64,000 nucleotides of DNA from positions 1 to 64,000 of the IMG/VR virus record IMGVR_UViG_3300046697_000246; one strand, 5' to 3'. Shown here piece after piece: positions 42,305 to 64,000 of the stretch; the stretch's first letter is position 1; the number at the start of each line of letters is the position of its first letter. Origin of the DNA: a virus. The position numbers and the translations under genes are program-made. The notes beneath the pieces are model-generated. The model did no database searches and had not been told where the DNA came from. It was given only the letters and a program-made list of their open reading frames with translations.

Positions 42305-43930
42305 TTAGGATGTGTAGTTAGTTTCGTCGCCCAGATTCACTCCGGCTGGGAATTGATAGGTTCCGTTTGAACCACTGGCCGGGCCGGATTGCGCGCCGTA
42401 GCCCATCGCTGCCGATCCGAGATATTGCTGGTTGGCGTTGTAATAATTTCCACCGCTGTCAACGTAACCCTGTGTCCCGTCCGGCAACACAACCGATGTC
42501 ATTCCTGCGTTGGTGCCGGAATAATTACTTCCGTAATTGCCTCCGCCGGCTTGTGCTGGCGCGGGCTGTTGCGGCTGTTGCGGCTGTTGCGGATAGCCGC
42601 CTCCCGGCATCACTCCACTGTAGCGAGAGCCGGTCGGATAAGCCCCCGCCCCTCCGGGATTGAAAGTCGTCGTGGTCGGCTGTGATGGATTGGCACCGAA
42701 TAAATCCTGCAAACCCTGATACTGGCTGCCGCCGTAGAGCGAGTTCAATCCGCCCAAAGTCGAGATGTTGCCCTGATTCAACCCTTGATTGGTCGCAAGA
42801 ATTTGCTGAATGGTCTGGTCGGGCACCGCCATTGCCTTCATGTAATTCGTGGCGTCGGCGATGCTCATGCCTGCCGTCTGCAACTTCAAGTTTTGAAGCT
42901 GGGTCGCCGTGTTGTAGGAATTCTGATAATTCTGCTGCGCCATCGGCGCGGTGAATCCAGTCAACTGGCCGATTTGTGCCTGCGTCAACTGTTGCTGCAA
43001 TGGGGTGACGTAGCCCTGAAGCAACTGCTGCGCGGCCTGCGTCTTGGCCAGTTGCGTCGGAAGCTGGATGTTCTGGACGCCCTGCGCGATCAGCGATTCC
43101 TCGCCGCCGCCCAGTCCACTTGGCGTTCCGGTGCCGAGCTTGTAGCGGCTGACCTGTGCTTGCAAGGCGTTCTGTTCGGCATCCGCCACGTTTTGCGCTG
43201 CGGTGTCGTAACTGTCCAAGTTCTGATTGGCCTGTGCAATATCGGATGCGGTCGTGTCTGCCTGATTGCCGAGGATGTTGGAATATGTCGTGTTGAGTCC
43301 GCTGGTGGTATTCGCGTAGCCGGCGTTGAGATTGTTCAGCGTGGTTGTCAGCGGGTCGAGATTGATGGCGTTCTGATCGCTGGCGAGGCCGGAGGTTGCC
43401 GTTGATTGCGCTGAACGCGAGGCATTGAGCAAATCGCTGAAATCTGTGATTCCCTGTGTTGGCTGAAAAGTGGACGTGAGATTGTTGGTAGCCGCTAAAA
43501 CGCCGGGGTTTTTGGCAATGTTGACAGACGCATAGCGCGAATTCGGATTGTTGGCCATCTGCTGGTATGACTGGCCGGCGTTAAAAGATTGGCCGAGATA
43601 TGTGCCGGTGAACGGCTGGCCGGTCGTCGAGGACACCCAGCTTGATCCATTCCAAGTCGGGTTTCCCGGCGTCTGCGAGAGGTAGCTGTTGGTCGTCGGA
43701 TTGTAATTTGGGCTGGTTTGGCTGCCGTAAGTATTGTTGATCAGGCCGCTGTAGGTGGTCTGGTTTTGTGACGGCGCAGACAACGACTGTCCGGGCGACC
43801 ATATATTGTTGTTCGTCCCTTGAGGAGTTGTGGGGAATGGCGTGTTCAAATACTGACCCTGCGAAAACATACTGTTGTTTGGATTATTATTGCTCCCGCC
43901 GCCAGCGGATGTAAATGATGTGTCAGCCAT
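42305..43930 (-). CDS. putative ejection/DNA transfer protein (Q/N/T/G-rich)
   Basis: Low-complexity composition typical of pilot proteins. Confidence 0.65.
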   Translation of the reverse strand: MADTSFTSAGGGSNNNPNNSMFSQGQYLNTPFPTTPQGTNNNIWSPGQSLSAPSQNQTTYSGLINNTYGSQTSPNYNPTTNSYLSQTPGNPTWNGSSWVSSTTGQPFTGTYLGQSFNAGQSYQQMANNPNSRYASVNIAKNPGVLAATNNLTSTFQPTQGITDFSDLLNASRSAQSTATSGLASDQNAINLDPLTTTLNNLNAGYANTTSGLNTTYSNILGNQADTTASDIAQANQNLDSYDTAAQNVADAEQNALQAQVSRYKLGTGTPSGLGGGEESLIAQGVQNIQLPTQLAKTQAAQQLLQGYVTPLQQQLTQAQIGQLTGFTAPMAQQNYQNSYNTATQLQNLKLQTAGMSIADATNYMKAMAVPDQTIQQILATNQGLNQGNISTLGGLNSLYGGSQYQGLQDLFGANPSQPTTTTFNPGGAGAYPTGSRYSGVMPGGGYPQQPQQPQQPAPAQAGGGNYGSNYSGTNAGMTSVVLPDGTQGYVDSGGNYYNANQQYLGSAAMGYGAQSGPASGSNGTYQFPAGVNLGDETNYTS

Positions 43931-44300: not shown

Positions 44301-44687
44301 GTGGCTGAAGACGCATACGGAAATTATCAGGCTGGATTGTCGGACAACGTGGATTATGTGACGCCACAATCAGGCGCGCCAGTCCAAACCGGAACTGGAT
44401 CGCCGACTGCCAACACGCCTGTTTCGCCAGTTTATCTGGATTCAGCCAACAATAACATCTGGATCAATCCGTCTTTGACGACAAATGGATGGGTTTTGTC
44501 CACCAGTGGCGGCGGGGGAAGCGTTCAGGTGATGAGCAGCAACGCCGCAAACCCGAACACGGCTTCTGTTTCGCCAGACAATCCGACGCTCGGCGCAATT
44601 TATTATCAAACCGCGTCTGTGACGCCCTACAACATCTGGATTTGGGACACGGCTGGTCGCGTCTGGGTGCAATTTTCCGCTCCGTAA
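44301..44687 (+). CDS. small tail-fibre-associated protein
   Basis: Two repeats of P..P..(Y/G)..Y...N.W.W typical of fibre modules. Confidence 0.55.
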   Translation: MAEDAYGNYQAGLSDNVDYVTPQSGAPVQTGTGSPTANTPVSPVYLDSANNNIWINPSLTTNGWVLSTSGGGGSVQVMSSNAANPNTASVSPDNPTLGAIYYQTASVTPYNIWIWDTAGRVWVQFSAP

Positions 44688-44692
44688 AATTT

Positions 44693-53426: not shown

Positions 53427-53824
53427 GAGGTTAAAACGGCTCGAATCAAATCAGAACATTTGCCCGGATTGTCAGCAAATGTCTCAACCATTTGAGGTGT
53501 TACCGCCGATCCGACGTGTCGGAAATCCATCACGGCACCGTCCATCCGGCCAAGAAGCCCTGTTGCCTTTTTTCTGAATCGGTTTCGCGTCTCCGGCACG
53601 TCAGCGCAATCCTTCTGCATTTGTTGCCATTTTGTAGCCAGTGAATAGAGCGCGTGCGTCACGTCGCGCGTCGTCCGGTAATAACGAGCGCAATGGTCAC
53701 AAGCGATGTGATCTTTGAAACTCATTATTATTTTATCAAGAATTGGATTAAATTTAATAGTTTCATCAAAATTGAATGTGCCGGCTTTGTGGCAGAACGT
53801 GCAATTATAGGGGATTTGTGTCAT
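53423..53824 (-). CDS. zinc-binding protein downstream of the replication initiator
   Basis: CTFC...CDHC. Confidence 0.55.
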   Translation of the reverse strand: MTQIPYNCTFCHKAGTFNFDETIKFNPILDKIIMSFKDHIACDHCARYYRTTRDVTHALYSLATKWQQMQKDCADVPETRNRFRKKATGLLGRMDGAVMDFRHVGSAVTPQMVETFADNPGKCSDLIRAVLTS

Positions 53825-54561
53825 AGCTGGTTTGCGAGGTTGCGGATGCGTTTTTCTTCTTCAGGTGATCTCTCTGGTTTGAAATTTCGGGCTTGGTCAA
53901 CGAACTTCTCCCATCCTGTGACAAGGGAAAAAAGTGATTGCGGCGGTTTCCTGGCCCTCGGAATAAACCGCTCGATCTCGGCAAGTTCTTCCAAAATGTC
54001 CGGTCTGCCCGTCAACCTTGAAATATCAGCCTGTTCAGAATAAGGCATTCCGTTTTGTTTGCGTTTGAATAAGCCAAAAAGACGGATCTCGACCTGGTTG
54101 AAAACATCTATTTCAGGCTTGGGGTTAGAAGCAGAGGTAGAAGCAGAGGCATATGCATATGCAGAGGGTGTTGGGGTGTTTGTTCCTACAGGCTGTTGGG
54201 GGTGTTGTTCATGTTTTGTTCGTGCTATTCCGGACAATCTACCCGCCTTTCTGCGCTCTTCTTTGATTTCACAGTCTCTTTTTCGGCGTCGGCTTGTTAG
54301 AGTTATGTTCCCGTTCCGTTCGTCAATATCGGCAACTTCGCGCGCTTTTAGCTGCTGAATTGCCATCGAAAGTTCAACCGGAAGGCACGAAAGAAGCCCG
54401 CAAAGCTCCTCGTTTGTGCCGGAAATCTGGCAGGCCCCGGACAGCATCATGGTGTTCAACGCGTCAAACCAGATTCCGCGAGTTGATGGCCGGCAGAGGC
54501 GCAATCCAGGCTCGCTCGCCCAGTTGGTCGGATACCACTTTTCCCATGGGAGTTCAGGCAT
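53821..54561 (-). CDS. phage replication initiator (DUF1376/YdaU-like N-terminus)
   Basis: PWEKWYPTNWASEPGLRLC..RGIWFDAL, RRKAG, AYAYASAS linker. Confidence 0.7.
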   Translation of the reverse strand: MPELPWEKWYPTNWASEPGLRLCRPSTRGIWFDALNTMMLSGACQISGTNEELCGLLSCLPVELSMAIQQLKAREVADIDERNGNITLTSRRRKRDCEIKEERRKAGRLSGIARTKHEQHPQQPVGTNTPTPSAYAYASASTSASNPKPEIDVFNQVEIRLFGLFKRKQNGMPYSEQADISRLTGRPDILEELAEIERFIPRARKPPQSLFSLVTGWEKFVDQARNFKPERSPEEEKRIRNLANQL

Positions 54562-54726
54562 AATAAAAAAGACCGCCATCAATCTTCACCCACGAGAAAG
54601 TTGTGACGCCCGCAAGCGGGGTCGGATTGACAGCGGCCAAAATGGAAAATGCGGTCGTCACAAGTGCATTCTCGCACACCCGCGCGCCGGATGCAAGCAA
54701 AATCTCGATATTTTTGGAGGGAGGGG

Positions 54727-55293
54727 TCATAAAAGTGCCAACTCCTGCTCAACGGCATGGATTTGAGCCGTGGCGGGCGGTGGTGGCGTCGAGTTGCGTT
54801 CCAGCCATGTCCGGGCAGCCGCCGCGCTTTTGAGGCGGTTAAACTCACTAAATGACATGCGTGGTGGCTTTGGCTTCTCTGACAATGCCCTTTCAATACT
54901 CCACCCACGATTTAGGCGGTTGATAATTGTATTGTGCGGGATACCCATTAACTTTCCCCAATCCACCAGACAGCGAACAACTCCATTAAAATTAAGAATG
55001 TGATTAGTGTGTTGGTTTCTGTTTTGCTCTGCACAAGTTGCCCAGCGACAATTTTCTTTTGAGTAAGAAAAATCATTGTCAATTCTTTCAATAGACTTTC
55101 CGCCAGGCCTTGGCCCCATATCTTCAAAGAAATTAGGAAATGAATGCCTCCAACGATCACAGACAAAAATCCCGCGCCCCCCATATCGTGGAAACGCATC
55201 TACGTTCGGATTGTAACACCTTGCAAGCATGGCCTTCCAAATTCGATATTCGGTCGTTTCACCGCCTCTTTTTGCCGCGCCGTGTTTCGTCAT
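54727..55293 (-). CDS. HNH homing endonuclease-like protein
   Basis: YRIWKAMLARCYNPN..YGGRGI.VCDRW..F.EDMG.RP..SIERIDND..Y.KENCRWAT. Confidence 0.85.
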   Translation of the reverse strand: MTKHGAAKRGGETTEYRIWKAMLARCYNPNVDAFPRYGGRGIFVCDRWRHSFPNFFEDMGPRPGGKSIERIDNDFSYSKENCRWATCAEQNRNQHTNHILNFNGVVRCLVDWGKLMGIPHNTIINRLNRGWSIERALSEKPKPPRMSFSEFNRLKSAAAARTWLERNSTPPPPATAQIHAVEQELALL

Positions 55294-55460
55294 AAAATTT
55301 TGGGTTGGCGTTTTAGGCAATCTTCAATTCCACGCTTCATCATGTCATTAGCGAGCGAAGGAGTTGAAAGTGAAAGCCCAAGTTGTTTTTTTAATTTTGC
55401 CAGCAACGCCCAATTATCCGGCGTTACTCGAACCCTGTTATGTTTGTCGCATTTGCTCAT
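55290..55460 (-). CDS. small RHH-like regulator
   Basis: RVRVTPDNWALLAKLK..GLS; coupled to the HNH gene. Confidence 0.5.
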   Translation of the reverse strand: MSKCDKHNRVRVTPDNWALLAKLKKQLGLSLSTPSLANDMMKRGIEDCLKRQPKIL

Positions 55461-55559
55461 GGCACACAATGTATCGTAGTGGGTTAATATGGTCAACAGA
55501 TTTTTTTCCGCTCGGCGTCGGATTGTTCTGGTGGACGGGTTTTCATAAAGTTTTCAGGT

Positions 55560-55826
55560 TCACGCCCGCATTAAAACCTGCTGGACTTTCTTGCCGGCCA
55601 AAGTCGGGCTGATTGTCCAGCCGCCATTCGGAAGTTTGTAGGTGCTGAACTGCATCTGTGGTTGGTCTTTTAGTTTTATGGTGACAACGACATCAGGCCG
55701 GATTTTAGGGCGAAACACACTCTCGTTTTCCGGGATCAATTCGGATGCGGCCTTGTGCTGGTAATACGCAGCAATGTTGCCCCGACGAATCGCCGCCTTC
55801 CAAGTGCTTGAATGAAAACGAGACAT
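55560..55826 (-). CDS. hypothetical protein
   Basis: 88-aa ORF starting at the left boundary site of the cassette array. Confidence 0.55.
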   Translation of the reverse strand: MSRFHSSTWKAAIRRGNIAAYYQHKAASELIPENESVFRPKIRPDVVVTIKLKDQPQMQFSTYKLPNGGWTISPTLAGKKVQQVLMRA

Positions 55827-55870
55827 AAATGTTAAGTGATTTTCACTTCGGCTTATCAGCTATGTTAGCC
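55818..55870 (+). repeat. left boundary site (attI-like or decayed attC)
   Basis: GCTTATC-AGCTAT-GTTAGCC; GTTAGCCGTCAC (55864-75) complements GTGACGGCTAAC (56575-86); no intact AAC arm. Confidence 0.6.
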
Positions 55871-56157
55871 GTCACTAGCTGGCTCTTTGGCGGGTAGCCT
55901 GATGCCTCGTCACATACACGCTGCATCCATTCCGCCAATGTCAGATTGTGCAGCCGTGCCATTCGCACATACCAGTTCTTGCGCGCCATCACGACGCGCA
56001 GGTGGATGTGTCCTGTGGCAGCTACGCTGTCATTCAGCGGACGACCAGCCCCGCGTCCTAGGTCGGCGGTTTTAGCGCCACGGGGCCGGTCGTGAGATTC
56101 TTCGTGGCATCGGACGCATACGTCCGAGTCTTTGCCGTGTTCGCATTTGTGGGCCAT
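55843..56157 (-). CDS. cassette gene: RHH-like regulator, paralog of 1835..2050
   Basis: Shared GRPL.D.VAATGHIHLRV..ARK.WYVR.ARL.N.TLAEWMQ..CD..S.YPPK. Confidence 0.7.
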   Translation of the reverse strand: MAHKCEHGKDSDVCVRCHEESHDRPRGAKTADLGRGAGRPLNDSVAATGHIHLRVVMARKNWYVRMARLHNLTLAEWMQRVCDEASGYPPKSQLVTANIADKPK

Positions 56158-56158
56158 A

Positions 56159-56404
56159 TTATTTCAGCAGCTTGGCGACTTCGGAGGCGATGCGGCTATT
56201 GTGCGGCTCGCCGATATTGTCAGCCGTCCACCATCCACGGCGCGAGGCTCGGCAGTCGCCCGGCGCGCAGCCGTATCCGCACTTGCATTGCGGATCGGAA
56301 TGATTGACGTGGGTTGCTCCGGTAGCAGCCTCGATCTTGCTGACGATTTTGCGGGACAGGAATCCGTCGTGGCATCCGAAGATATATTCGCTTGAGGTTG
56401 TCAT
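56159..56404 (-). CDS. cassette gene: Cys-rich hypothetical protein
   Basis: CKCGYGC..C; downstream of the cassette promoter. Confidence 0.6.
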   Translation of the reverse strand: MTTSSEYIFGCHDGFLSRKIVSKIEAATGATHVNHSDPQCKCGYGCAPGDCRASRRGWWTADNIGEPHNSRIASEVAKLLK

Positions 56405-56475
56405 ATTTTTGTCTGTGTTGTTTGTTCACTTCCCGGATTCGCCGGGGCGATTTGTTGGTTTCTTCCAACACAGAT

Positions 56476-56504
56476 AGTTTCGCATTTCATCTTCATTTTG
56501 TCAA
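56476..56504 (-). promoter_or_regulatory. cassette-internal promoter TTGACA-N17-GAAACT
   Basis: Consensus -35; shares 15 bp with the promoter at 3398. Confidence 0.6.
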
Positions 56505-56579
56505 CACATTATTATCAGATTTTTACGATTTATTTTGCCCTTGAAAACATTGACGATTTTAGTGTTTTTCGCCCGTGAC

Positions 56580-56669
56580 GGCTAACAAATCGGTGCAGCC
56601 AATGCCGGTTGGCGCTCTCAGCCAAGTCCGGGCGTCACTGGCCCGGCATGGCTGACCTCTGCGTTGGGT
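56580..56669 (+). repeat. attC-like site 1
   Basis: GGCTAAC..CAGCCAATGCCGG..CCGGCATGGCTG..GTTGGGT. Confidence 0.85.
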
Positions 56670-56780
56670 GCAGAAAAGTTTCATGCGGATTCTCCATGCG
56701 CTTGCGGGCGTTTGCCGCTGCGCCGAGTTTGCCAAGTCTTGAGGCGTTTCCTTTGTGAAACCTGCCATGTCTAGCGGTGA

Positions 56781-56802
56781 TTATTATATCAGCCTGTTGG
56801 GC
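56781..56802 (+). repeat. second attI-like simple site
   Basis: TATCAGCCT-GTTGGGC; GTTGGGCGGCACA (56796-808) complements TGTGCCGCCCAAC (57262-74); no hairpin arm upstream. Confidence 0.55.
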
Positions 56803-56835
56803 GGCACAGCGCACGCGCACTGTGCCGCGTGAGTT

Positions 56836-57282
56836 TTATTTGTTTCGGGTAGCTTCAAGGATTGGCAGGTTGGCTTCGGTCGGCACATAGACCACGGTTT
56901 TATCCGTGCCTTGCGCGGCCACGTCGTTGATCCAGAGGTAGCGGAGATACGCTTCGTTGTTTTTCAGCGATTCGCCGATTATCTGGTTTGCTTTTGCGAC
57001 ACCACCAGCGCGGATTACTTCCGCTTGCGCCAGCAGTTCCGCCGATTCCATTTTGGCCTTCGCTTCGGCCACGGCCACTTCTTTTGCGGACTGAGCGTGT
57101 GCCAGCATTGCCTGGCCGAGTGCGCGGCTCGCATAGATGTTGTATTGAGGATACGCCCACATTGCGCCGAAGATTACGACGCCGATTGCCACGATTGATG
57201 CGACGATCCAGCCCGCGTAGTTTGGTTCACCATTTTCTTTCATTGTTGTGTGTCTTTCGATTGTGCCGCCCAACAACCGCAT
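56836..57282 (-). CDS. cassette gene: membrane-anchored SPFH-like coiled-coil protein
   Basis: Transmembrane helix, EAKAKMESA..AEVIRA.GVAKANQIIG.SL..YLRYLWI..VVYVPTEANLPILEA. Confidence 0.7.
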   Translation of the reverse strand: MRLLGGTIERHTTMKENGEPNYAGWIVASIVAIGVVIFGAMWAYPQYNIYASRALGQAMLAHAQSAKEVAVAEAKAKMESAELLAQAEVIRAGGVAKANQIIGESLKNNEAYLRYLWINDVAAQGTDKTVVYVPTEANLPILEATRNK

Positions 57283-57376
57283 GGAGCCAATGCGGGTTGG
57301 ACGCGCAGTTTATTTCGTTGAGGCTCCAGATTGTTTCACGGTTTCAGTCCCGCATGGCTCATGCGGAGCGTTAGAC
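57268..57376 (+). repeat. attC-like site 2
   Basis: GCCCAAC..CCGCATGGAGCCAATGCGGG..CCCGCATGGCTCATGCGG..GTTAGAC. Confidence 0.9.
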
Positions 57377-57516
57377 AGCCGGGCGGAGCGTTTTGCTTTA
57401 CGGCGAGCTTTTTGAAGTGCGGCCTGTTGCGCTGGCGTGATTATCCGCGTGCGCTTACGTTTCTTCGGGCCTTGCGCGCCCCACCGCTTGAAATCTTCTG
57501 ACGTGTAGGTTTTCAA
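57310..57516 (-). CDS. cassette gene: small basic protein
   Basis: K/R-rich; reads into attC2. Confidence 0.55.
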   Translation of the reverse strand: MKTYTSEDFKRWGAQGPKKRKRTRIITPAQQAALQKARRKAKRSARLSNAPHEPCGTETVKQSGASTK

Positions 57517-57836
57517 AATTGGTGCCGGTCTTTATGGGTTTCATCCCAATGTTCTTTTGCGTGGCAGTTACCGCAAAGTAATTCGCATTTAGAAATCTCA
57601 ATCTTAACCTTTTCTAAAGACTTTGTTTGCGCTAAAAGCCTGTTCACTCTATCCACTTTCGTTGATGGGTCAATATGGTGGAACTGCAAACAGGCCGGAT
57701 GAGATTCACCGCACCTTTTACAGCCTGACAATTTAACACCCAACACATACGCCCTTAATTTAGCTCTGTGAGCGGACTGCCGCTTACGCTCACTCTCTTT
57801 GTAGAGATGTAAATTTTCACGCCCGATGTAACTCAT
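57513..57836 (-). CDS. cassette gene: small zinc-binding HNH endonuclease
   Basis: CKRCG..LQFHH.DP..KCELLCGNCH..EH. Confidence 0.85.
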   Translation of the reverse strand: MSYIGRENLHLYKESERKRQSAHRAKLRAYVLGVKLSGCKRCGESHPACLQFHHIDPSTKVDRVNRLLAQTKSLEKVKIEISKCELLCGNCHAKEHWDETHKDRHQF

Positions 57837-57844
57837 AAATTTAT

Positions 57845-58160
57845 TGCGGGTCTTTCCCCGCTGTCATCACCTTCGGACGATCAATCCAATCCACGGCCAC
57901 GGTGCGGGCCTGTCCCAGCTTCGGTTGCTGCTCCACTTCCGGCATTGTTGATGCCAGTTCCTCACGCGGGGCTATGAGTCGGAACCGCCGGAGGCTTTCG
58001 CCAAATTATCTCCGGACTTTCACGCCGTCCGGCTGGCGGCTCTTACGTTAGACAGATTCCGCGCTCTGCCGTGCTTTCGTGCGGCTCAGTTTATTTTATA
58101 CTCACTTCACTGGAGCCGACTCCGTTTTTCACAAGTCGCACTGCCGGTTTCCCGCGTGCA
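57845..58160 (-). ncRNA. putative structured ncRNA upstream of the HNH gene
   Basis: No convincing ORF; several stems with GAAA/GUGA loops on the minus strand; promoter-like TTGATT-N16-TATAAA at 58167-58194. Confidence 0.6.
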
Positions 58161-58233
58161 AGATTATTTATATCATATCCCCGTTACGAATCAAACTCTT
58201 TTTTGATTTATTTTCGTGAATCGCAAACCGGCT

Positions 58234-58330
58234 GTCTAACAACGCGCTGGAACCAACGCCCATTATCGCTGTCAGTCCGCTACGCGGGTCATTCCTCAAG
58301 CTGGGCGTGGTTCAGCTTGAGGCGTTAGAC
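58234..58330 (+). repeat. attC-like site 3
   Basis: GTCTAAC..GCTGGAACCAACGCCCA..TGGGCGTGGTTCAGC..GTTAGAC. Confidence 0.9.
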
Positions 58331-58590
58331 GGCTCGGCGAGCGCCTCGCGCGCTATGTCGCCAAGTCCGAAACTGCGGATGCTTTGCGATTCTTCGGACT
58401 CGATGATTTCTTCGAGTGCTTTTTTGTAGCGCTTCACATTCTCACCGAGCGCAAAAATTTGTCTGGCATCGGCTCGAATCAGCCTGTCAGATTCAAGCAG
58501 TTCGCCGATGAGTTGCAGTTTTGACACCTTTTTGTATCGTGCGGCGACTGTAATTTGTTCGCCGAATGTTTGTTCGCTCATAGAGTTCAT
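58312..58590 (-). CDS. cassette gene: coiled-coil hypothetical protein
   Basis: YKKALEEI...IAREAL; stop lies inside attC3. Confidence 0.6.
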   Translation of the reverse strand: MNSMSEQTFGEQITVAARYKKVSKLQLIGELLESDRLIRADARQIFALGENVKRYKKALEEIIESEESQSIRSFGLGDIAREALAEPSNASS

Positions 58591-58811
58591 TTGTTCCTTT
58601 TCACGAGGCGTTCAGCCTCGAACTTGGTCAGCCCTATTGCCAGCTTGGTCACTTTTCCGAACTTGGTCACTTTCACCACCATCCAAGCGTTTCCTACCGT
58701 CGAGCATGGTTTTATTTGAAGTTTCATATTTTCAATTCGCCGTCTAACAACCGCATGAAGCCAATGCGGTTGGGCGTCTCTGGTTTGACGGGAAGTCTCT
58801 GGTGATTTCAT
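58587..58811 (-). CDS. cassette gene: hypothetical protein
   Basis: Start inside attC4 loop; ATGA-coupled to the next gene. Confidence 0.55.
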   Translation of the reverse strand: MKSPETSRQTRDAQPHWLHAVVRRRIENMKLQIKPCSTVGNAWMVVKVTKFGKVTKLAIGLTKFEAERLVKRNK

Positions 58812-58847
58812 GGTTTGGTGTCCGCGTCGCTTATGCGGACGTTAGAC
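58742..58847 (+). repeat. attC-like site 4
   Basis: GTCTAAC..CCGCATGAAGC..GCTTATGCGG..GTTAGAC. Confidence 0.9.
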
Positions 58848-58857
58848 GGCTTCAGTA

Positions 58858-59232
58858 TCACCAGTCTATGAGTATCGTGTGTTCACCGGCTTCAAGCAGC
58901 CCTTTGGCATGGAGGTCATTTGCCACCATTTGCAGGTCAGGGTAGAAGTTTCTATCCCACCAAAGTCCCAGGCTGTAGTCCGTTCGCCCATCGGCCAGCG
59001 CTTTTTTTGGATCTCTTGCGAGCCACGCCGCGAAGCTCACGCCCTTTTCTTCATGGTTCACTTTTTCCGGCACAGTTGTTCGCTCGTGGTCACTTGCTTC
59101 GGATGGCACGTCTATTACCACCGTTCCGCGACTCATGCAGCCATCCTGTTGCTGTAGATTGTAGGGGCGTCCGTAGGTTTTCACCACGAGCGCATCCCAT
59201 TCCGACACTTCGATCACTTGTTTTGTTTTCAT
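58858..59232 (-). CDS. cassette gene: conserved-looking phage hypothetical protein
   Basis: YGRPYNLQQQDGC..WWDRNFYP..ANDLH..G..I.IDW. Confidence 0.7.
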   Translation of the reverse strand: MKTKQVIEVSEWDALVVKTYGRPYNLQQQDGCMSRGTVVIDVPSEASDHERTTVPEKVNHEEKGVSFAAWLARDPKKALADGRTDYSLGLWWDRNFYPDLQMVANDLHAKGLLEAGEHTILIDW

Positions 59233-59253
59233 ATTTGTTTATCGCTGTTCGCC

Positions 59254-59352
59254 GTCTAACAACTCACTCCAGCCAACCGGCGTTACGACTTGCCGTCCGC
59301 CTTCGCGGGCGACGCGCCTCGGTCGCCGGTGGCTGAGTTCGAGGCGTTCTCC
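59254..59352 (+). repeat. attC-like site 5
   Basis: GTCTAAC..ACTCCAGCCAACCGGCG..CGCCGGTGGCTGAGT..GTTCTCC. Confidence 0.9.
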
Positions 59353-59576
59353 GGCACGAGTCCTTTGTATTTATGGAGTTGGTAGCGGAGGTGTTGGATT
59401 AGCGCGGCGCAGTTTTTCCCATCATCACCAAAGTCTCGTAAGGCGGCTTCGGCTTGCCACATTTGAGCGGTTGCCTGTGCGATGTGAGACATGACGTGTT
59501 CGCGTGCCGGAGAACAAGTCGCTGCACCCGCAACTGCCGCTGCCCGTTTCCGATTCTTGGCTTTTATTTTGGTCAT
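59283..59576 (-). CDS. cassette gene: hypothetical protein
   Basis: Starts in attC6, stops in attC5. Confidence 0.55.
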   Translation of the reverse strand: MTKIKAKNRKRAAAVAGAATCSPAREHVMSHIAQATAQMWQAEAALRDFGDDGKNCAALIQHLRYQLHKYKGLVPENASNSATGDRGASPAKADGKS

Positions 59577-59636
59577 AAAGTTTCAGTGCCGCCCACGGTC
59601 GCGCTCGGCGGCAGTGGGGTGAGCTTCACGTTCGGC
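59509..59636 (+). repeat. attC-like site 6
   Basis: GGAGAAC..GCTGCACCCGCAACTGCCGC..GCGGCAGTGGGGTGAGC..GTTCGGC. Confidence 0.85.
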
Positions 59637-59640
59637 GTCT

Positions 59641-60288
59641 TCATTTTCGCGCCTCCGGTTTATCGTAGGGCAGTCCGACGAAAGCAAAGACGGCTTCCTC
59701 GGATTCCATCGCTCGCGCTTCGTCACCCCGCGAGAATCCCGCACCGTATGGATTCCATTTCCATCCGCGTTCCTGCGCGGACATGCAGATGCGCGTGTTG
59801 CTGTCCGCCGGGCCGGTTCGGCAGACGAGATAGTTGTGCCAGTTCTCCGCCGTCGCCGCGAAGAAGTCCACGGGCAGCCCGGTGGCACGGTGGCGCATCA
59901 GTTTATTTTTCGCGCCATACATTTCCGATCCGTTCACATTCTTGCGCCGTTCCAGCACGCCGGATTTTTCGAGCGCGGCGATTACTTCGTCCGCGAGATT
60001 TACCGTGATGCTGGCGAACATATCGGCAGGGTCTTGGCGCTCTTCGGTTTTTCCGATGTAGAGGATTTCAGCATCGCCCACGGTGGTCTTTCGCCGGCGC
60101 AGTGAGCCAGCGACGACGAGGCGCTCACAGACTGGCTTGAGCGCCGCGCAGAGTTCCGCAGCCACCTTCATTCCAACGGCGTTGTCGAAGCGAGGTTTCT
60201 GTCCAGACGCCGAACACATCGCTGCACCCGCAATGACTGCTGCGGTCACAGTTTTCGGCGATGGTGGCGTTTTTGGCGCAGCAGTCAT
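59641..60288 (-). CDS. cassette gene: minimal DNA polymerase X (palm and thumb)
   Basis: VAGSLRRRK.TVGDAEIL, PVDFF, RTGP and SEEAVFAFVGLPY..PEAR PolX motifs. Confidence 0.85.
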   Translation of the reverse strand: MTAAPKTPPSPKTVTAAVIAGAAMCSASGQKPRFDNAVGMKVAAELCAALKPVCERLVVAGSLRRRKTTVGDAEILYIGKTEERQDPADMFASITVNLADEVIAALEKSGVLERRKNVNGSEMYGAKNKLMRHRATGLPVDFFAATAENWHNYLVCRTGPADSNTRICMSAQERGWKWNPYGAGFSRGDEARAMESEEAVFAFVGLPYDKPEARK

Positions 60289-60309
60289 GGGGTGAGCTTT
60301 GCGTTCGGC
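60209..60309 (+). repeat. attC-like site 7
   Basis: GCCGAAC..GCTGCACCCGCAATGACTGCTGCG..CGCAGCAGTCATGGGGTGAGC..GTTCGGC. Confidence 0.9.
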
Positions 60310-60527
60310 TGCTTTATTGCTTGGGCATTCCAGTTGCGGCGGGCGGTGTGGCGAGTCCACGCCATTTTTCCGCTCCGACCGCATTTGGGACATAGCAGCC
60401 AGATCAGTCCGCCGCCACCGTCCCATATCGGGAGCGTTCCACAGTTACACGGCAGCAGCCGAACAAGCCTGCCGGAGCCAACCGTGGTTGGCCGTCTCTT
60501 TTTATTCGCTACGGATTTCTTTTTCAT
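60285..60527 (-). CDS. cassette gene: Lar (restriction alleviation)-like zinc finger
   Basis: LLPCNCG...CPKCG...ARRNWN. Confidence 0.65.
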   Translation of the reverse strand: MKKKSVANKKRRPTTVGSGRLVRLLPCNCGTLPIWDGGGGLIWLLCPKCGRSGKMAWTRHTARRNWNAQAIKQPNAKLTP

Positions 60528-60568
60528 AAAGTCTCTAGTCCACGGCGGCGCATCAGGCACCGTTCGGC
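60458..60568 (+). repeat. attC-like site 8
   Basis: GCCGAAC..GCCTG..GCCAACCGTGG..CCACGGCGGC..CAGGC..GTTCGGC. Confidence 0.8.
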
Positions 60569-61095
60569 TTCTGATACACGATCCAGTGTGTTCGGGTGTT
60601 TCCGACCCGCTGACCAAATAGCGGCTTCTGGTCGGTGAGCGACAAAACGGTTGTCAGCTTCACCCGATGTTCATTCCATTTGAAAACGAGCGTTCCCAGA
60701 GGACACAGGACGCGGAAGCATTCACGGAAGCCGGCCGAGATTTCGTTGCGCCAGTCGAGCGGAAGGCTTCCGTATTTCTTTATCGTCCTTCCGTTCGGCC
60801 CGCACCAGGTATGCGGCGGGTCGAATACGACGAGCGCGAAAGTGCAGTCAGGGAATGGCAGTTCCTTGAAGTTTGCCAGCACGTCGGGATTTACGACGAT
60901 GCTTGCCGGTTTCGGGCCGGTGTGGTCTATAAGCGTTTCGCGGCGCTTATCCACGAACAGAGCGCGAGGGTCTGATTTATCAAACCAGAACATCCGACTC
61001 CCGCAGCACGCATCCAGCACAGAAGCCGAACAAGTCCTTGGAGGCAAAGACGCCACGCCTTGCGCTCCATCATTGATTTCAATTTGAGTATTCAT
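60553..61095 (-). CDS. cassette gene: SAM-dependent methyltransferase
   Basis: VLDACCGSRMFWFDK, FDPPH, ECFRVL..GTLVFKWNE. Confidence 0.85.
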   Translation of the reverse strand: MNTQIEINDGAQGVASLPPRTCSASVLDACCGSRMFWFDKSDPRALFVDKRRETLIDHTGPKPASIVVNPDVLANFKELPFPDCTFALVVFDPPHTWCGPNGRTIKKYGSLPLDWRNEISAGFRECFRVLCPLGTLVFKWNEHRVKLTTVLSLTDQKPLFGQRVGNTRTHWIVYQKPNGA

Positions 61096-61146
61096 TTTAC
61101 GTTCGAGGCGGCGCTGTCGGCGTCTTGCCTCAAGTCTGCGTTCGGC
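61025..61146 (+). repeat. attC-like site 9
   Basis: GCCGAAC..CTTGGAGGCAAAGACGCC..GGCGTCTTGCCTCAAG..GTTCGGC. Confidence 0.9.
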
Positions 61147-61544
61147 GAAATGAATTGCACCGGCAGCCCCATCTCGTTTGCGATGGCGATTTCACCCGCA
61201 ACGCCTTTTGATTCCTTCCAGCCGTCGAGTGTCAGCACGATCATCGCGCAGCACGCGGCGAGGATGGCGCGGTCATACGCCTGCCAGTATTCCCACCCCA
61301 GAGGCAGATCACCGGCCAGCGCAATTGGATGCGTGTGGCTGATAGGCGAGTAGATGTGCATTCCCTTCCGCATCAGTTCCGCCGCCGCCGCGTTGACGGC
61401 TCGGAAGCGTCCTTCCCGCACCGATGCGTCTGGGTGCGAGTATGGGGTTGCGAGATATACGAGCGTTTTCGCCGAACAAGCGGATGCAGGCAACAGCCGC
61501 TGGCCATCTGGTTTTTCAAGTGTTGATTCCATATTCAAAGTCAT
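61092..61544 (-). CDS. cassette gene: DUF1937 / nucleoside deoxyribosyltransferase-like protein
   Basis: VYLATPYSH, YSPISHTH, GWKESKGV.GEI. Confidence 0.8.
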   Translation of the reverse strand: MTLNMESTLEKPDGQRLLPASACSAKTLVYLATPYSHPDASVREGRFRAVNAAAAELMRKGMHIYSPISHTHPIALAGDLPLGWEYWQAYDRAILAACCAMIVLTLDGWKESKGVAGEIAIANEMGLPVQFISPNADLRQDADSAASNVK

Positions 61545-61583
61545 TTGGTCTTCGGCGGCTGTGCCTGATCCGCAGCGTTCGGC
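61471..61583 (+). repeat. attC-like site 10
   Basis: GCCGAAC..GCGGATGCAGGCAACAGCCGC..GCGGCTGTGCCTGATCCGC..GTTCGGC. Confidence 0.9.
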
Positions 61584-61590
61584 GGCATTT

Positions 61591-61839
61591 TCATTCGATG
61601 CAAACAATACGCTCGGAGCCGCATTCAGGACACACGAGTTTCCCGCCGGCCACGCATGGCATTCGTTCCTCTCCGCAGTTATGGCAGCCGTGATATTTTC
61701 CGCAGGCTTGTTCTACGCTCAACGTTGCCGCCGAACAAACCGTTGCAGATAATTCGCTCTGCGCCTTCTGTTCTCGCTGCTCTCGTCGGCGAGCAACGCG
61801 CGCATACACGAGGATGGATGTTGGGTCAAAGTCGCTCAT
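61591..61839 (-). CDS. cassette gene: small zinc-ribbon protein
   Basis: CHNC...CPECGS; starts in attC11. Confidence 0.6.
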   Translation of the reverse strand: MSDFDPTSILVYARVARRREQREQKAQSELSATVCSAATLSVEQACGKYHGCHNCGEERMPCVAGGKLVCPECGSERIVCIE

Positions 61840-61860
61840 ATCTGAACTTTCTCGTTAGCC
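61730..61860 (+). repeat. attC-like site 11
   Basis: GCCGAAC..GTTGCAGATA..TATCTGAAC..GTTAGCC. Confidence 0.75.
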
Positions 61861-62144
61861 ATCGGTTCGACATCCACGCCTTTCATTCCAAGAAACGCTT
61901 TTCCGTGGATTGGGCATACAAACATATCGAAGTGGTGCTTGTGACTTCGGACGCGCCACTCAGCCTTGTTCTCGCAGAGTTCGCGGTCAGCTATGACCAT
62001 ACACGTCCGCTGGCTAACCCGGCGCTGCTGCGAATCCGTGCCTCGCTTTACGGACAACGGCATCATCACCATTTCGCGGCACCATCCGGCACAGTAGCCG
62101 TCATCCGTCACCAGTTCTTTTTTGCATTTTGGACACGTTCTCAT
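61836..62144 (-). CDS. cassette gene: Cys-rich hypothetical protein
   Basis: CPKC..CAGWC..CPIH; starts in attC12, stops in attC11. Confidence 0.6.
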   Translation of the reverse strand: MRTCPKCKKELVTDDGYCAGWCREMVMMPLSVKRGTDSQQRRVSQRTCMVIADRELCENKAEWRVRSHKHHFDMFVCPIHGKAFLGMKGVDVEPMANEKVQI

Positions 62145-62210
62145 ATTCGTTATTTTCCTTTGCGCTCCACATCCGCCGCCGGCACGGATCGCAGAGCTTG
62201 GTCGTTAAGC
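62012..62210 (+). repeat. attC-like site 12 (199 bp, expanded coding loop)
   Basis: GGCTAAC..CTGCGAATCCGTGCC..GGCACGGATCGCAG..GTTAAGC. Confidence 0.8.
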
Positions 62211-62483
62211 CGCTAGCTTCAGTTTGTGGCAGTTTTTTATTTCCTCACAACATTGCGGACAAGTTATCGCTTGCGGTGGGACATTCTCCCAAGCGGATTG
62301 ATCTTGCTCATTTCCGGTCGCAGTTCCATCGAACGCTTGCCCGCAGATGGTAAATTCCGAATTGAGAGCACTTATCCGGTGGACAAATCCATCACCTGTT
62401 TTTCCGAAGCCCGTATTCTTTCGGGGCCGCGGCTTAACCCGTCGCTGCTGCGGACACGGCTTGGCGTCTTGGGATTTGCTCAT
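62205..62483 (-). CDS. cassette gene: zinc-binding hypothetical protein
   Basis: VH...TICG...ITCPQC; stop TAA lies in the core site of attC12. Confidence 0.6.
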   Translation of the reverse strand: MSKSQDAKPCPQQRRVKPRPRKNTGFGKTGDGFVHRISALNSEFTICGQAFDGTATGNEQDQSAWENVPPQAITCPQCCEEIKNCHKLKLAA

Positions 62484-62540
62484 AAGGTTTCTGGTTTGCC
62501 TGCGTCCCCATGTGCCGGGTCGCAGAGCGCGTCGTTCGGC
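62432..62540 (+). repeat. attC-like site 13
   Basis: GCTTAAC..CGCTGCTGCGGACACGGC..GCCGGGTCGCAGAGCG..GTTCGGC. Confidence 0.8.
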
Positions 62541-62795
62541 CTATTCAGTTTTTTCGAGCCATTTCGCATATTTTTGCGCGGCTTCCTTGACGGCTTCTTC
62601 GAGTGTTTCTTTGCTTTTGGATTCACAGTAGCAGTCACCATGTATTGTAACACAGTAGCCACGACCAGCCCCCATTAACTTGAACATCTTGACCTCTTGC
62701 CCATCATCTAGTGCAGGCGCCAACGACTCTTGGCGATTTCCGTTCGATGTTTTTTTCTTCATTGGTTCTTTTGATTGTGATTTTTTAATTTTCAT
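62541..62795 (-). CDS. hypothetical protein
   Basis: ORF ending immediately at the attC13 core site. Confidence 0.5.
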   Translation of the reverse strand: MKIKKSQSKEPMKKKTSNGNRQESLAPALDDGQEVKMFKLMGAGRGYCVTIHGDCYCESKSKETLEEAVKEAAQKYAKWLEKTE

Positions 62796-63789
62796 GCGGA
62801 TCGTTAAAATCTTTTGGCCATTCCCTGATTTGAAGATGTTTCGGAAACTTGCTCATGTCGGTTTCAACTTTGCCGTCCATTGAAACTTGTTTTACCCACA
62901 CCGGAATTCCAGCCTCCAAGCCTTGCTCGACCAGCGACTCAATCCATTCGATCTTGCACTCGCGACGGCGCGGGCCGGACTCGCAGCCGATGATGAGCCA
63001 GTCAATCCCAACACCAAGTGCCCAACCGTCTTGAAACTTGGTCGAACCGGTTTTTACTTTCATCAAATCTACCGGCCCCAGCAGCGGTTCGAGCGAAAGA
63101 CCCCGGCACGCCGCCGGAATCTTGAGCGCATCCCGGACGCGCTTGTCGGCCATCGGCTGATTTTCAACCGAAGTCAGAAGGGTGATATTTTTGTGCGGAT
63201 GGTCGTAGGTAATCCATTCATTCAACCAACCAAGCAATCCACAAATCCATTCGTCGCGTCCCCCGGCATTGTGTTTTTCAGCGAGATAATTCACCGTCGC
63301 CGACATTCGCGGAAAGAAATTCTCCGGCCTCTTGGTGCAGTTGATCAGCGTCACGTCCGGGCATCGGCGTTGAACGTCAAGGAAATGAGCGAAGGTTTCA
63401 ATCGGCCACTTTAAGTCCAAGAAGTCGCTGTTTGAATCGCAGAAGATTTTTCTGATGTGGAAATTCATGCGGCACAAATTGTCGCCATCACCACGGCAAA
63501 AATGGTTCGTAGGCTCTTTGAACGCCTCGCCGCAGTCGTCGCAAATCAGCGGTCGCCGGTTCATCGCCAGCATGGACTTCTCGAAGCCCTTGACCGGCAC
63601 GCGGGCGCCATGCGGCCCCCACGTCTCAACACGTTCCCCGCGCATTCCCGGCCATCTGCCAGATCGCAGCACGCGGGCGGGAGTGTCCATCGCGGCAAAG
63701 CAATTTTTGCAGCCTTCCGAAATGCGGGAACAACCGATTACGCAATTTGAGGATGAGTCCGCCCAGGAAATTGAAGTTTTAGTTGCCAT
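62785..63789 (-). CDS. DUF5131 (phage Gp37/Gp68) family protein
   Basis: ISWAD...GCSRISEGCKNCFA, TKRPEN, TSVENQ, SLEPLLGP, DWLIIGCESG, WVKQ. Confidence 0.85.
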   Translation of the reverse strand: MATKTSISWADSSSNCVIGCSRISEGCKNCFAAMDTPARVLRSGRWPGMRGERVETWGPHGARVPVKGFEKSMLAMNRRPLICDDCGEAFKEPTNHFCRGDGDNLCRMNFHIRKIFCDSNSDFLDLKWPIETFAHFLDVQRRCPDVTLINCTKRPENFFPRMSATVNYLAEKHNAGGRDEWICGLLGWLNEWITYDHPHKNITLLTSVENQPMADKRVRDALKIPAACRGLSLEPLLGPVDLMKVKTGSTKFQDGWALGVGIDWLIIGCESGPRRRECKIEWIESLVEQGLEAGIPVWVKQVSMDGKVETDMSKFPKHLQIREWPKDFNDPHEN

Positions 63790-64000
63790 TTGTAGTGATG
63801 ACCTCATGCCTCAATGAATGCCGGTGTTTTACCGCCCCGATTTCCGACATTGATGTCCTGATGGGCAATGACGCCGGCAATCTTGCCTTCCGAATCCGTC
63901 AGGGCTTGCTTCAATCCCGTCAAATCCCATTCAACCTTGCGGACCAGGTCCGGCCTGGATTTCATCAATTGGAAATCATTGATCTGGTCAATAATCCAGA

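Follow-up and report, generated by a model that had tools for sequence, protein, structure and literature searches.

Evidence for an integron-type array of 13 gene cassettes without an integrase in an uncultured peat-soil phage

An uncultured tailed phage from peat soil very probably carries a true array of integron-type cassettes that lacks an integrase (a CALIN), with 13 attC sites and 13 cassettes at 55864-62540, which we consider the best explanation of the observations as a whole. Its record, IMG/VR IMGVR_UViG_3300046697_000246, is linear, 73,290 bases long and estimated to be 95% complete, and the window analysed here is its first 64,000 nucleotides. The array occupies an intergenic spot of an operon of small genes, with a RecT gene (64810-65742) nearby. 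An earlier note had read the region as integron-type cassettes bearing the footprint of G/TT crossover, and the attC model, the chain of cores and the contig junctions reported below agree with that reading. Its label of an early operon does not stand as an observation, having been drawn from the position beside the RecT and DUF5131 genes.

The array and its attC sites

All 13 attC-type hairpins are present where the earlier note had placed them, on the + strand, and measure 90-199 nt from the start of the left core to the end of the right core. The features are listed below with the scores of covariance model R1 (bits, E) and the z values of bottom strands folded as DNA.

55560-55826, - strand: backbone gene just downstream (gene sense) of the array, still next to it in the X7 variant
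55864-55870, + strand: left junction of the array, an isolated right-type core (GTTAGCC) that no arms precede, complementary to the S1 left core
56580-56669, + strand: attC S1, hybrid cores GGCTAAC / GTTGGGT, closes cassette 1 (55865-56663); 39 bits, E 4.1e-09; z -2.48
57268-57376, + strand: attC S2, cores GCCCAAC / GTTAGAC, closes cassette 2 (56664-57370); 31.8 bits
56836-57243/57282, - strand: cassette 2 gene, phrog_11227 (PHROG 2.7e-45)
58234-58330, + strand: attC S3, closes cassette 3 (57371-58324); 61 bits, E 6.6e-16
57513-57836, - strand: cassette 3 HNH endonuclease gene (phrog_3106, 1.8e-22)
58742-58847, + strand: attC S4, closes cassette 4 (58325-58841); weakest site, right arm decayed; 20 bits, E 0.0031
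58312-58590 and 58587-58811, - strand: cassette 4 genes, with ATG 58811 within S4
59254-59352, + strand: attC S5, hybrid cores GTCTAAC / GTTCTCC, closes cassette 5 (58842-59346); 55.3 bits
58858-59232, - strand: cassette 5 gene, phrog_27943 (PHROG 5.3e-52)
59509-59636, + strand: attC S6, hybrid cores GGAGAAC / GTTCGGC, closes cassette 6 (59347-59630); 27.5 bits; z -0.05
59283-59576, - strand: cassette 6 gene, start 59576 in the S6 loop
60209-60309, + strand: attC S7, closes cassette 7 (59631-60303); 41.9 bits; z -5.32
59641-60288, - strand: cassette 7 PolX-like nucleotidyltransferase gene (PF14791 1.2e-08, PF14792 1.5e-04)
60458-60568, + strand: attC S8, closes cassette 8 (60304-60562); 24.9 bits
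60285-60527, - strand: cassette 8 gene, 80-aa Cys-rich protein
61025-61146, + strand: attC S9, closes cassette 9 (60563-61140); 36.9 bits
60553-61095, - strand: cassette 9 DNA methyltransferase gene (phrog_954, 9.8e-63)
61471-61583, + strand: attC S10, closes cassette 10 (61141-61577); 45.8 bits; z -6.46
61092-61544, - strand: cassette 10 DUF1937 gene (PF09152, 2.4e-22)
61730-61860, + strand: attC S11, hybrid cores GCCGAAC / GTTAGCC, closes cassette 11 (61578-61854); 27.1 bits; z +0.78, no better than shuffles
61591-61839, - strand: cassette 11 gene
62012-62210, + strand: attC S12, hybrid cores GGCTAAC / GTTAAGC, long loop, closes cassette 12 (61855-62204); 26.7 bits
61836-62144, - strand: cassette 12 gene, start 62144 inside the S12 loop
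62432-62540, + strand: attC S13, hybrid cores GCTTAAC / GTTCGGC, closes cassette 13 (62205-62534); 25.8 bits; z -0.46; right end of the array
62205-62483, - strand: cassette 13 gene, start 62483 within S13
62541-63807, - strand: backbone genes that adjoin the array upstream in gene sense; an 84-aa ORF ends at 62541, and 62785-63807 is a DUF5131 gene (PF07505, 4.5e-41)

Cassette 3 also contains an AT-rich non-coding stretch and, at 58047, a repeat of its own first 9 bases. At the left junction the core at 55864 matches the S1 left core over GTT plus 9 bases, and R1 detects no attC site to the left of it; this end is attI-proximal by classical polarity, and no recognisable attI lies next to the array.

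A custom structure scanner (AAC and GTT 50-215 nt apart, with paired arms) found 9 sites in 55.8-62.6 kb and 0 in the remaining 66.5 kb of the record at threshold 11, and 20 shuffles of the array region gave a mean of 0.05 sites at threshold 10. This enrichment, together with the full-length recovery of 13 of 13 sites by R1, bears out the attC architecture claimed for the hairpins. Extra unpaired bases (2-3) stand in the + strand 5' arm of all 10 scored sites, with none in the 3' arm. The strict RYYYAAC / GTTRRRY consensus is kept by 5 of 13 left cores and 5 of 13 right cores, and the non-consensus variants are also used by IntI-adjacent bacterial sites. When the bottom strands were folded as DNA, z was -2.4 or lower in 8 of the 12 sites folded (S12 was excluded as too long), S5 was weak (-1.62), and S6, S11 and S13 folded no better than shuffles. 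These last three, with S4 and its 20 bits, make up the four weak sites; the bottom strand of S4 forms local hairpins instead of a long stem.

The right core of each site and the left core of the next share GTT and a mean of 7.6 further matching bases, against a mean of 2.4 within one site. The summed run along this chain is 99, compared with a permutation mean of 20.6 and maximum of 60, and 0 of 20,000 permutations reached 99, so that the chain of hybrid cores reported earlier is upheld. One core pair given for S1/S2 (56796/57262) was wrong, since 56796 is a second core copy and the true S1 right core lies at 56663.

Site family and integrase

Model R1 was built solely from 16 attC sites adjoining intI genes in three Verrucomicrobiota genomes. 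In the phage it recovered every one of the 13 sites on the + strand with E-values of 6.6e-16 to 3.1e-3, which are roughly calibrated, R1 being a custom model distinct from that of IntegronFinder; across the 73,290-base record it found no site besides these at E up to 1. A pattern derived from the phage sites matched at least 120 bacterial genome stretches, about 91 of 120 of them from Verrucomicrobiota according to record titles. IntI above the TIGR02249 cut-off occurs in 4 of 5 tested bacterial genomes with such sites, against 0 of 14 control genomes, and arrays of these sites directly adjoin intI in three genomes (G001, G004, G005). Judged by sequence, the attC family of the phage is the one used by the chromosomal integrons of Verrucomicrobiota, and from the attC family solely this is likely the host phylum.

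Integrons in Verrucomicrobia are mentioned by Cury et al. (2016). The sedentary chromosomal integrons of this phylum, such as that beside intI in Verrucomicrobia bacterium IMCC26134 (CP011265), share with the phage array an attC family that a single covariance model recognises, as well as their cores, the bulge in the arm and the chaining of hybrid cores. They differ in that intI, and presumably attI, is adjacent, whereas the phage array has neither.

Neither PF00589 nor TIGR02249 (IntI, or any tyrosine recombinase) gave a match at E up to 0.1 in the whole 73,290 bases. Because the record holds no tyrosine recombinase, an enzyme acting in trans is the simplest reading, and it is probably provided by the host. 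Three other viral records (94-100% complete, terminase present) contain 3-8 such sites in the parts examined and no IntI; a related viral record, G007, does encode an IntI, next to an array that is likewise reversed.

Gene orientation, cargo and natural variants

All cassette genes of the phage are antisense to attC polarity, lying on the attC bottom strand, and are co-oriented with the phage operon, with ATGA overlaps. Each attC precedes its gene, the start codon lies inside the gene's own attC in 9 of 13 cassettes, and the attC often also contains the preceding gene's stop codon; ATG 60288 of the PolX-like gene, for example, is within S7 and overlaps the upstream gene's stop. With start and stop codons placed in attC, the whole array has the form of a single translationally coupled operon. 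Both the reversed layout and the starts inside attC were overlooked in the earlier note. By heuristic gene-strand calls, in which many intervals are ambiguous, bacterial arrays have 65 intervals with genes on the same strand as attC, 3 opposite, 42 ambiguous and 10 without ORF, compared with 4, 15, 9 and 9 in viral loci (Fisher p = 1e-10); the Verrucomicrobiota arrays thus carry genes on the attC top strand and the phage array on the bottom strand. A codon model gave 0 same, 30 opposite and 9 ambiguous in viral loci and 0, 9 and 3 in the window, this model being trained on the phage backbone and uninformative on cassettes from bacteria, for which it called 15 same, 11 opposite and 96 ambiguous.

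The cassette cargo matches phage protein families (HNH, DNA methyltransferase, phrog_27943, phrog_11227). From the cargo list given earlier, PolX-like, DUF1937, HNH and DNA methyltransferase genes stand; the Lar-like gene drops out, as no cassette protein matched the Lar family at E up to 1, and so do the zinc fingers, which are Cys-rich patterns alone with non-significant matches. Homologues of the methyltransferase cassette, likewise reversed and bounded by sites, occur in phage record L099 (48%) and in L164 (54%), and S8 recurs together with its Cys-rich gene in phage record L073 (site about 90% DNA identity, protein 44%).

Contigs from other metagenomes differ by whole cassettes. As the earlier note had expected for related phages, the cassette-content junctions in X4, X6, X7 and X8 lie at the right-hand-core G/TT, their positions being ambiguous by 1-5 bases (shared GTTAG). 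In record 20 of X7 (1667 nt, each piece matching with 0-1 mismatches), backbone 55419-55863 runs straight into 57370, so that cassettes 1-2 are lost from this same backbone. At exactly 56663/56664 the contigs of X4, X6 and X8 switch partner, their match starting at 56664; among those of X8, record 26 matches 56664-57374 (cassette 2) with unlike flanks on both sides. Presence or absence of HNH appears in X7 and X8 as a 322-base joint (57526/57849), and record 8 of X4 (8989 nt) is unbroken from 60466 through 64000. The variants are assembled contigs, a kind of data in which circles, frequencies and timing are not visible.

Alternative readings, known systems and proposed mechanism

It is extremely improbable that the phage acquired a fragment of a host chromosomal integron by illegitimate recombination and that the array is a passenger without a role in phage biology. 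The Verrucomicrobiota type of the sites would suit such an origin, and phages carrying host integron fragments are described, for example Vibrio anguillarum phages (Qi et al. 2023, PMC9892861). However, a captured chunk would retain the bacterial layout, so the reversed genes (0 same and 9 opposite in the window) largely refute it; the phage families of the cargo, the co-oriented and ATGA-overlapped genes and an array GC equal to that of the backbone (0.549, close to 0.534 for the rest of the record) also speak against it, as does the search of 138 bacterial loci, where 1 of 15 cassette proteins matched (L164) and was reversed there too. A chiefly regulatory or structural role for the hairpins (RNA stem-loops, terminators, translation coupling), with shuffling by homologous recombination between them as proposed for the PeSL motifs of T4-type phages (PMC2839356, PMC4122927), is in our view very unlikely. 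The phage has a RecT gene, PeSL-mediated shuffling is published, and with start and stop codons inside the hairpins the sites surely affect translation. Yet the variant junctions map to one core's GTT and not elsewhere in the shared arms, the hybrid cores require a fixed crossover point, the sites fit on one strand only a model from IntI-adjacent bacterial sites, and neither of two motif types is enriched (promoter-like 6 vs 4.7 expected, terminator-like 17 vs 14.2). As described in these two sources, PeSLs resemble the array in that repeated stem-loops lie on either side of small accessory genes within a hyperplastic region for which modular shuffling is proposed; they are promoter-terminator motifs thought to work via homologous recombination, whereas the array has attC-type sites, a fixed G/TT crossover and no enrichment of sigma-70-like promoters.

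An unrecognised phage-encoded enzyme, either an unannotated protein or one in the missing ~5% of the genome, is an unlikely source of the site-specific recombination in place of host IntI. Most phage proteins are without a family match, the record is linear and incomplete by estimate, and G007 has an IntI of its own; against this stand the negative PF00589/TIGR02249 search, the three other near-complete array-bearing records that also lack IntI, and the commonness of IntI in the candidate host phylum.

The claim that such arrays were undescribed in phages does not hold, as Qi, Rajabal, Ghaly, Tetu and Gillings (2023, Front Microbiol, PMC9892861) described 17 CALINs carried by phage genomes. 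Those described there resemble the present array in having attC cassettes, no phage integrase, recurrent DNA methyltransferase cargo and sites taken as used by bacterial IntI. Their described examples are small (TJE1 has 4 ORFs as well as 3 attC sites, against 13 cassettes here) and in the orientation typical of bacterial arrays, whereas here all are reversed; start codons mostly inside attC, Verrucomicrobiota-type sites and whole-cassette natural variants further set this array apart from them. Apparently new in relation to those examples are the array size, the genes all antisense to attC, and most genes starting inside their own attC. IntI is also able to place cassettes at positions other than att sites (attG; Loot et al., bioRxiv 10.1101/2022.09.11.507474), a possible route for the first cassette into a plain intergenic GTT, with which the lone armless core at the start of the array is consistent; that work, as far as described, concerns bacterial genomes and isolated cassettes.

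We propose that IntI-type recombination at the G/TT of the + strand right-hand (R') core adds, removes and swaps cassettes, most probably with a host integron integrase acting during infection. Of 6 phage attC sites assayed by Qi et al. (2023), IntI1 recombined 5, and bottom strands on the lagging-strand template are reported to recombine more (Loot 2017). The reversed layout may favour bottom-strand exposure: the recombinogenic bottom strand is here also the sense strand, so transcription, or replication in the direction of transcription, would leave it single-stranded and thereby favour cassette turnover.

Recognition of the attC sites and their core chain

The 13 hairpins reported in the earlier note were all found at the positions it named (sites S1-S13, + strand, 56580-62540), and each closes one of 13 cassettes that together span 55865-62534. 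The AAC and GTT triplets are present in 13/13 sites. The strict 7-mer consensus RYYYAAC / GTTRRRY is kept by 5/13 left cores and 5/13 right cores, and non-consensus cores (GCCGAAC / GTTCGGC and others) are also used by bacterial sites adjacent to an integron integrase gene. A purpose-built structure scanner, which requires AAC and GTT 50-215 nt apart with pairing arms, detected 9 sites in 55.8-62.6 kb at threshold 11 versus 0 in the other 66.5 kb of the record; at threshold 10, shuffles of the region gave 0.05 scanner sites per trial. The extrahelical bases of textbook attC are G and T. In 10/10 scored sites the + strand 5' arm carries 2-3 extra bases and the 3' arm 0, and the IntI-adjacent bacterial sites display the same one-arm bulge asymmetry, on the gene-sense strand.

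No Rfam family was matched in the window at gathering thresholds. When the sites of the window were aligned to one another with MAFFT (A1, A2), the alignments were out of structural register and no model was made from them. The attC test was kept free of phage sites as training data: a covariance model, R1, was built from 16 aligned IntI-adjacent sites of three Verrucomicrobiota genomes, and the use of bacterial in place of phage sites also avoided circularity. R1 matched 13/13 phage sites over the full model, all on the + strand, with S3 scoring highest (61 bits), S4 lowest (20 bits) and E-values from 6.6e-16 to 3.1e-3; with E up to 1, no match beyond the 13 sites was returned in 73,290 bases. 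The R1 listing holds 26 rows because the viral locus L001 overlaps the window. When the bottom strands of 12 sites were folded as DNA, the outcome was uneven: z-scores were -2.4 or lower in 8/12, whereas those of S6, S11 and S13 did not surpass their shuffles. In 8/12 folded strands the lowest-energy structure is the long bulged stem, and S4 folds otherwise, without a long stem. The poorly folding sites (S6, S11, S13 and S4) are the hybrid or decayed ones.

The claim that cores match between neighbouring sites rather than within a site also holds. Between one site and the next, right and left core are complementary over GTT plus a mean of 7.6 further bases; within a site, the two cores share on average just 2.4 bases. 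The cores of five sites (S1, S5/S6, S11, S12, S13) are plainly mismatched within the site and matched across the neighbouring gene, and sites with the common GTTCGGC are still distinguished by the next 3-4 bases. The summed core run of 99 (permutation mean 20.6, maximum 60) was reached in 0/20,000 permutations. Chance was rejected as the source of the array.

Gene orientation and cargo of the cassettes

All cassette genes in the window lie on the - strand, opposite to the attC top strand; the usual integron layout, with the ORF on the attC top strand and the attC downstream of it, was not found in the window. The classical arrangement is seen in the integron of Verrucomicrobia bacterium IMCC26134, in which the genes occupy the strand where the site reads AAC-AA with the bulged arm first, and intI is divergent. 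Gene strands were scored by ORF length and by codon models. A first ORF-length heuristic on scanner-defined sites was mixed for viral loci and was redone with model-defined sites. The codon model from Verrucomicrobiota chromosomal DNA was undecided on bacterial cassettes, so that the bacterial reference rests on the length criterion. By this criterion the viral and bacterial loci differ with Fisher p = 1e-10.

Strand of cassette genes relative to the attC top strand
12 bacterial loci, length criterion: 65 same, 3 opposite, 42 ambiguous, 10 without ORF
20 viral loci, length criterion: 4 same, 15 opposite, 9 ambiguous, 9 none
Window, length criterion: 0 same, 4 opposite, 7 ambiguous, 1 none
Viral loci, codon model trained on phage backbone: 0 same, 30 opposite, 9 ambiguous
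Window, codon model trained on phage backbone: 0 same, 9 opposite, 3 ambiguous
Bacterial cassettes, codon model from Verrucomicrobiota chromosomal DNA: 15 same, 11 opposite, 96 ambiguous

In 9/13 cassettes the ORF has its first ATG inside the cassette's own attC, mostly in the loop. The G|TT cut thus leaves each cassette with a complete gene whose start region lies in its attC. The stops of several genes fall a few codons inside the following site, or the gene overlaps with the ATG there (ATGA), and with starts and stops placed in this way the array can be read as a single coupled operon. Bottom strands show more folding and recombination when they lie on the lagging-strand template, an orientation that most sedentary integrons avoid (Loot et al. 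2017). Reversal makes the bottom strand the sense strand, which would thus be exposed in transcription and in co-directional replication; such exposure of the recombinogenic strand would be a possible role of the reversed layout.

Family matches assigned part of the cargo, as listed below with the RecT gene of the record; the remaining small cassette proteins gave no significant family, and the Lar-like protein named in the earlier note had no match.

Genes assigned in the array, and RecT
56836-57282, - strand, phrog_11227, annotated protease
57513-57836, - strand, HNH endonuclease
58858-59232, - strand, phrog_27943
59641-60288, - strand, PolX-like nucleotidyltransferase
60553-61095, - strand, DNA methyltransferase
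61092-61544, - strand, DUF1937
64810-65742 of the record, RecT

The HNH gene of cassette 3 (57371-58324) shows a presence/absence polymorphism: contigs of the public metagenome runs X7 and X8 skip exactly 322 bases, 57527-57848, with a 7-base ambiguity. The skip bears no relation to the attC sites, which fits a free-standing homing endonuclease gene. The same cassette repeats its first 9 bases (GTTAGACAG at 57370) at 58047-58055, ahead of an AT-rich non-coding stretch. This repeat may have been left by the core of an attC now decayed, and cassette 3 would then be a fusion of two units; R1 found no site at 58047-58055.

Apparent cassette movement in natural populations

Nineteen studies of peat, permafrost and fresh water supplied 24 public runs that contain parts of the array, and the contigs of four of these runs (X4, X6, X7, X8) were compared with 53500-64000. 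Breakpoints at G|TT, the prediction made for related phages, were recovered there at right-hand cores (55863|57370; 56663|56664; end at 57370-57374). In X7 record 20, a contig of 1667 nt with 0-1 mismatches per piece, backbone 55419-55863 is joined straight to 57370; the contig represents the same phage lacking cassettes 1 and 2. The missing part is bounded on either side by a right-hand core GTT, with a 5-base ambiguity from the common GTTAG. Contigs of X4, X6 and X8 begin to match precisely at 56664, at the TT of the right core of S1; in X6 and X8 unrelated sequence lies before this point. X8 record 26 matches 56664-57374 and is unlike the window in both flanks, so that cassette 2 (56664-57370) is a unit occurring in other contexts too. 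Breakpoints at right-hand, not left-hand, cores are what an R' crossover with the + strand as top predicts. Taken together, the R1 matches, the core chain and the G|TT junctions support the integron-cassette reading of the earlier note.

Chimeric assembly was ruled out as the origin of the array, because X7 record 20 runs from the left backbone into cassette 3 and S8-S13 are continuous with the right backbone in X4 record 8 (8989 nt). Five further joints (58260|62465, 58344|59248, 58338|58738, 60541|58312, 61758|61831) were set aside for short sides of 21-31 letters or extra letters between the pieces; their probable source is other genomes whose attC halves are similar. Summed contig depth in X8 was ~320-1030 at 56308-57360, 59116-59817 and 61573-61923 versus ~14-48 in most backbone bins, which, contig depth being a rough guide, indicates copies of these cassettes or sites in other, more abundant genomes of the sample. 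Between-run depth differences were not used for ranking. In cassette 2, contigs of X6 and X8 also have 11 additional bases after 56778; the point is non-coding and adjoins a + strand hairpin and T-run (56812-56831).

Relatives of the cassettes occur in other viral records. L073 has S2-like, S8-like and S3-like sites at ~90% identity in a different order, with the Cys-rich gene remaining beside its S8-like site, and L099 has a homologous methyltransferase cassette between two sites. On a contig binned as Acidobacteriaceae (L164, 1020-1627), a methyltransferase 54% identical to that of cassette 9 (60563-61140) abuts an attC and is also reversed; this contig may be a mis-binned phage piece.

Phage context, integrase source and significance

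The IMG/VR virus record is linear, 73,290 bases long, with a CheckV completeness estimate of 95%, and the window covers its bases 1-64000. It belongs to a tailed phage, with a large terminase at 4729-6270 (phrog_2, 7.4e-15), a tail protein (phrog_17517, 1.5e-44) and a virion structural protein (phrog_3287, 1.8e-23). An IS1595/ISXO2-type transposase gene (L001 17482-18144, record 72482-73144, 6e-41) lies near the right record end, outside the window. A 1058-aa protein with alpha-galactosidase (melibiase) domains (44489-47665) adjoins tail-fibre-like genes and may be a glycan-degrading tail spike. The 2038-aa ORF at 30580-36696 on the - strand is without a Pfam match, and other large ORFs, among them 38993-41167 and 42305-43930, are without assignment. 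An IMG/VR search with the large terminase and DUF5131 proteins found no relatives of the phage, and a cultured-phage search with the terminase protein and array DNA gave just short unrelated matches of 69-76% within cassette 2.

The array has the GC content of the backbone. Its left end is a lone GTT core located 37 bases from the start of a backbone gene, on the upstream side in gene sense, and its right end directly abuts the stop of another backbone gene, so that cassettes appear to have been inserted repeatedly at a single GTT between genes. IntI has been reported to insert cassettes at sites other than att (Loot et al., bioRxiv 10.1101/2022.09.11.507474).

A pattern from the phage sites matches at least 120 stretches of bacterial genomes; ~91 of the 120 matches listed are Verrucomicrobiota by record titles, among them Limisphaerales, Opitutaceae, Pedosphaera, Prosthecobacter and isolate IMCC26134. 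Dense arrays of the same sites adjoin intI, with 15 sites within ~10 kb in IMCC26134, 5 in Opitutaceae EW11 and more in the compared genome G004. Integrons in Verrucomicrobia were noted by Cury et al. 2016.

For the enzyme, the earlier note had proposed a host IntI or one encoded outside the window. The latter was not found: the whole 73,290-base record has no match to TIGR02249 or PF00589, and no tyrosine recombinase of any kind. The former gained support, in that an integron integrase above the curated TIGR02249 cut-off is present in 4/5 site-bearing bacterial genomes tested versus 0/14 control genomes. Neither intI nor a recognisable attI at the left array junction was found, and the array is therefore classed as a CALIN, an attC cluster without integron integrase, and not as a complete integron. 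Three phage records that are 94-100% complete and carry a terminase (G008, G009, G010) have 5, 8 and 3 sites in the parts examined, and no IntI was found in them. A phage-encoded enzyme does occur in G007 (L254), a 26-kb IMG/VR record, 67% complete, whose own integron integrase (17428-18420, 346.8 bits) is divergent from eight adjoining attC sites (L254 12132-18420) with cassette ORFs again reversed. These ORFs include an RNA ligase, a PAPS-reductase-like protein and an Acb2/Tad1 hairpin domain protein (3.8e-07), the domain being a known counter-defence fold. A DnaB helicase was found in the G007 array flank and no terminase in the record. As IntI is lacking here and in the three near-complete records, G007 excepted, the simplest mechanism for the phage is a host integrase in trans, by which the cassettes would be recombined. 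IntI1 has been found to recombine phage attC sites (Qi 2023, PMC9892861).

The array is a large, reversed CALIN in a phage and, as far as the contig junctions tell, apparently active. The statement that such arrays are undescribed in phages did not stand, as Qi et al. 2023 had reported integrons and 17 CALINs in phage genomes, and five phage attC sites were proven to recombine (PMC9892861). A legend of that paper gives an example with 3 attC sites, and the authors describe a typical orientation, unlike the 13 reversed cassettes of the window; beyond Qi et al. 2023, whose supplement lies outside this comparison, a full-text literature search found no paper on phage attC arrays and none on reversed cassettes. 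The nearest phage-specific analogue, the PeSL motifs of T4-type phages (PMC4122927, PMC2839356), is yet a different kind of element, described there as an early promoter joined to a terminator stem-loop. This trait was not recovered in the window array, where neither promoter-like sites (6 vs 4.7 expected) nor terminator-like sites (17 vs 14.2 expected) are enriched.

The attC family provides a host clue (Verrucomicrobiota) for this uncultured peat phage, and attC-rich contigs should be treated with caution, since they may be viral or bacterial. The same recombination sites serve the phage for 13 accessory gene units of its own, a DNA methyltransferase, an HNH nuclease and a PolX-like enzyme among them, and variants in natural populations differ in entire cassettes, with breaks precisely at the crossover point. 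Candidate reasons for the uniform reversal are exposure of the strand, start codons lying within attC and separation from the cassette pool of bacteria. The reason is now testable, as are the host integrase as a driver of phage genome plasticity in infection and the arrays as counter-defence banks.

Integrons are viewed as bacterial gene-capture devices and lately as banks of anti-phage defence genes. We tentatively propose, at slightly less than an even chance, that Verrucomicrobiota phages, and perhaps others, keep their own circulating pool of back-to-front cassettes and hijack the host integrase to reshuffle a bank of accessory and counter-defence genes. The attC ahead of each gene would act as its translation start region and make the sense strand the recombinogenic bottom strand; transcription or replication of the phage would leave this strand exposed, upon which the host integrase would reshuffle the cassettes. 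The phage pool would be separate from the bacterial one. Some such phages even have an IntI of their own, as G007 does, with the Acb2/Tad1-domain protein among its reversed cassettes. If true, phages would mirror the bacterial use of integrons as banks of defence genes.
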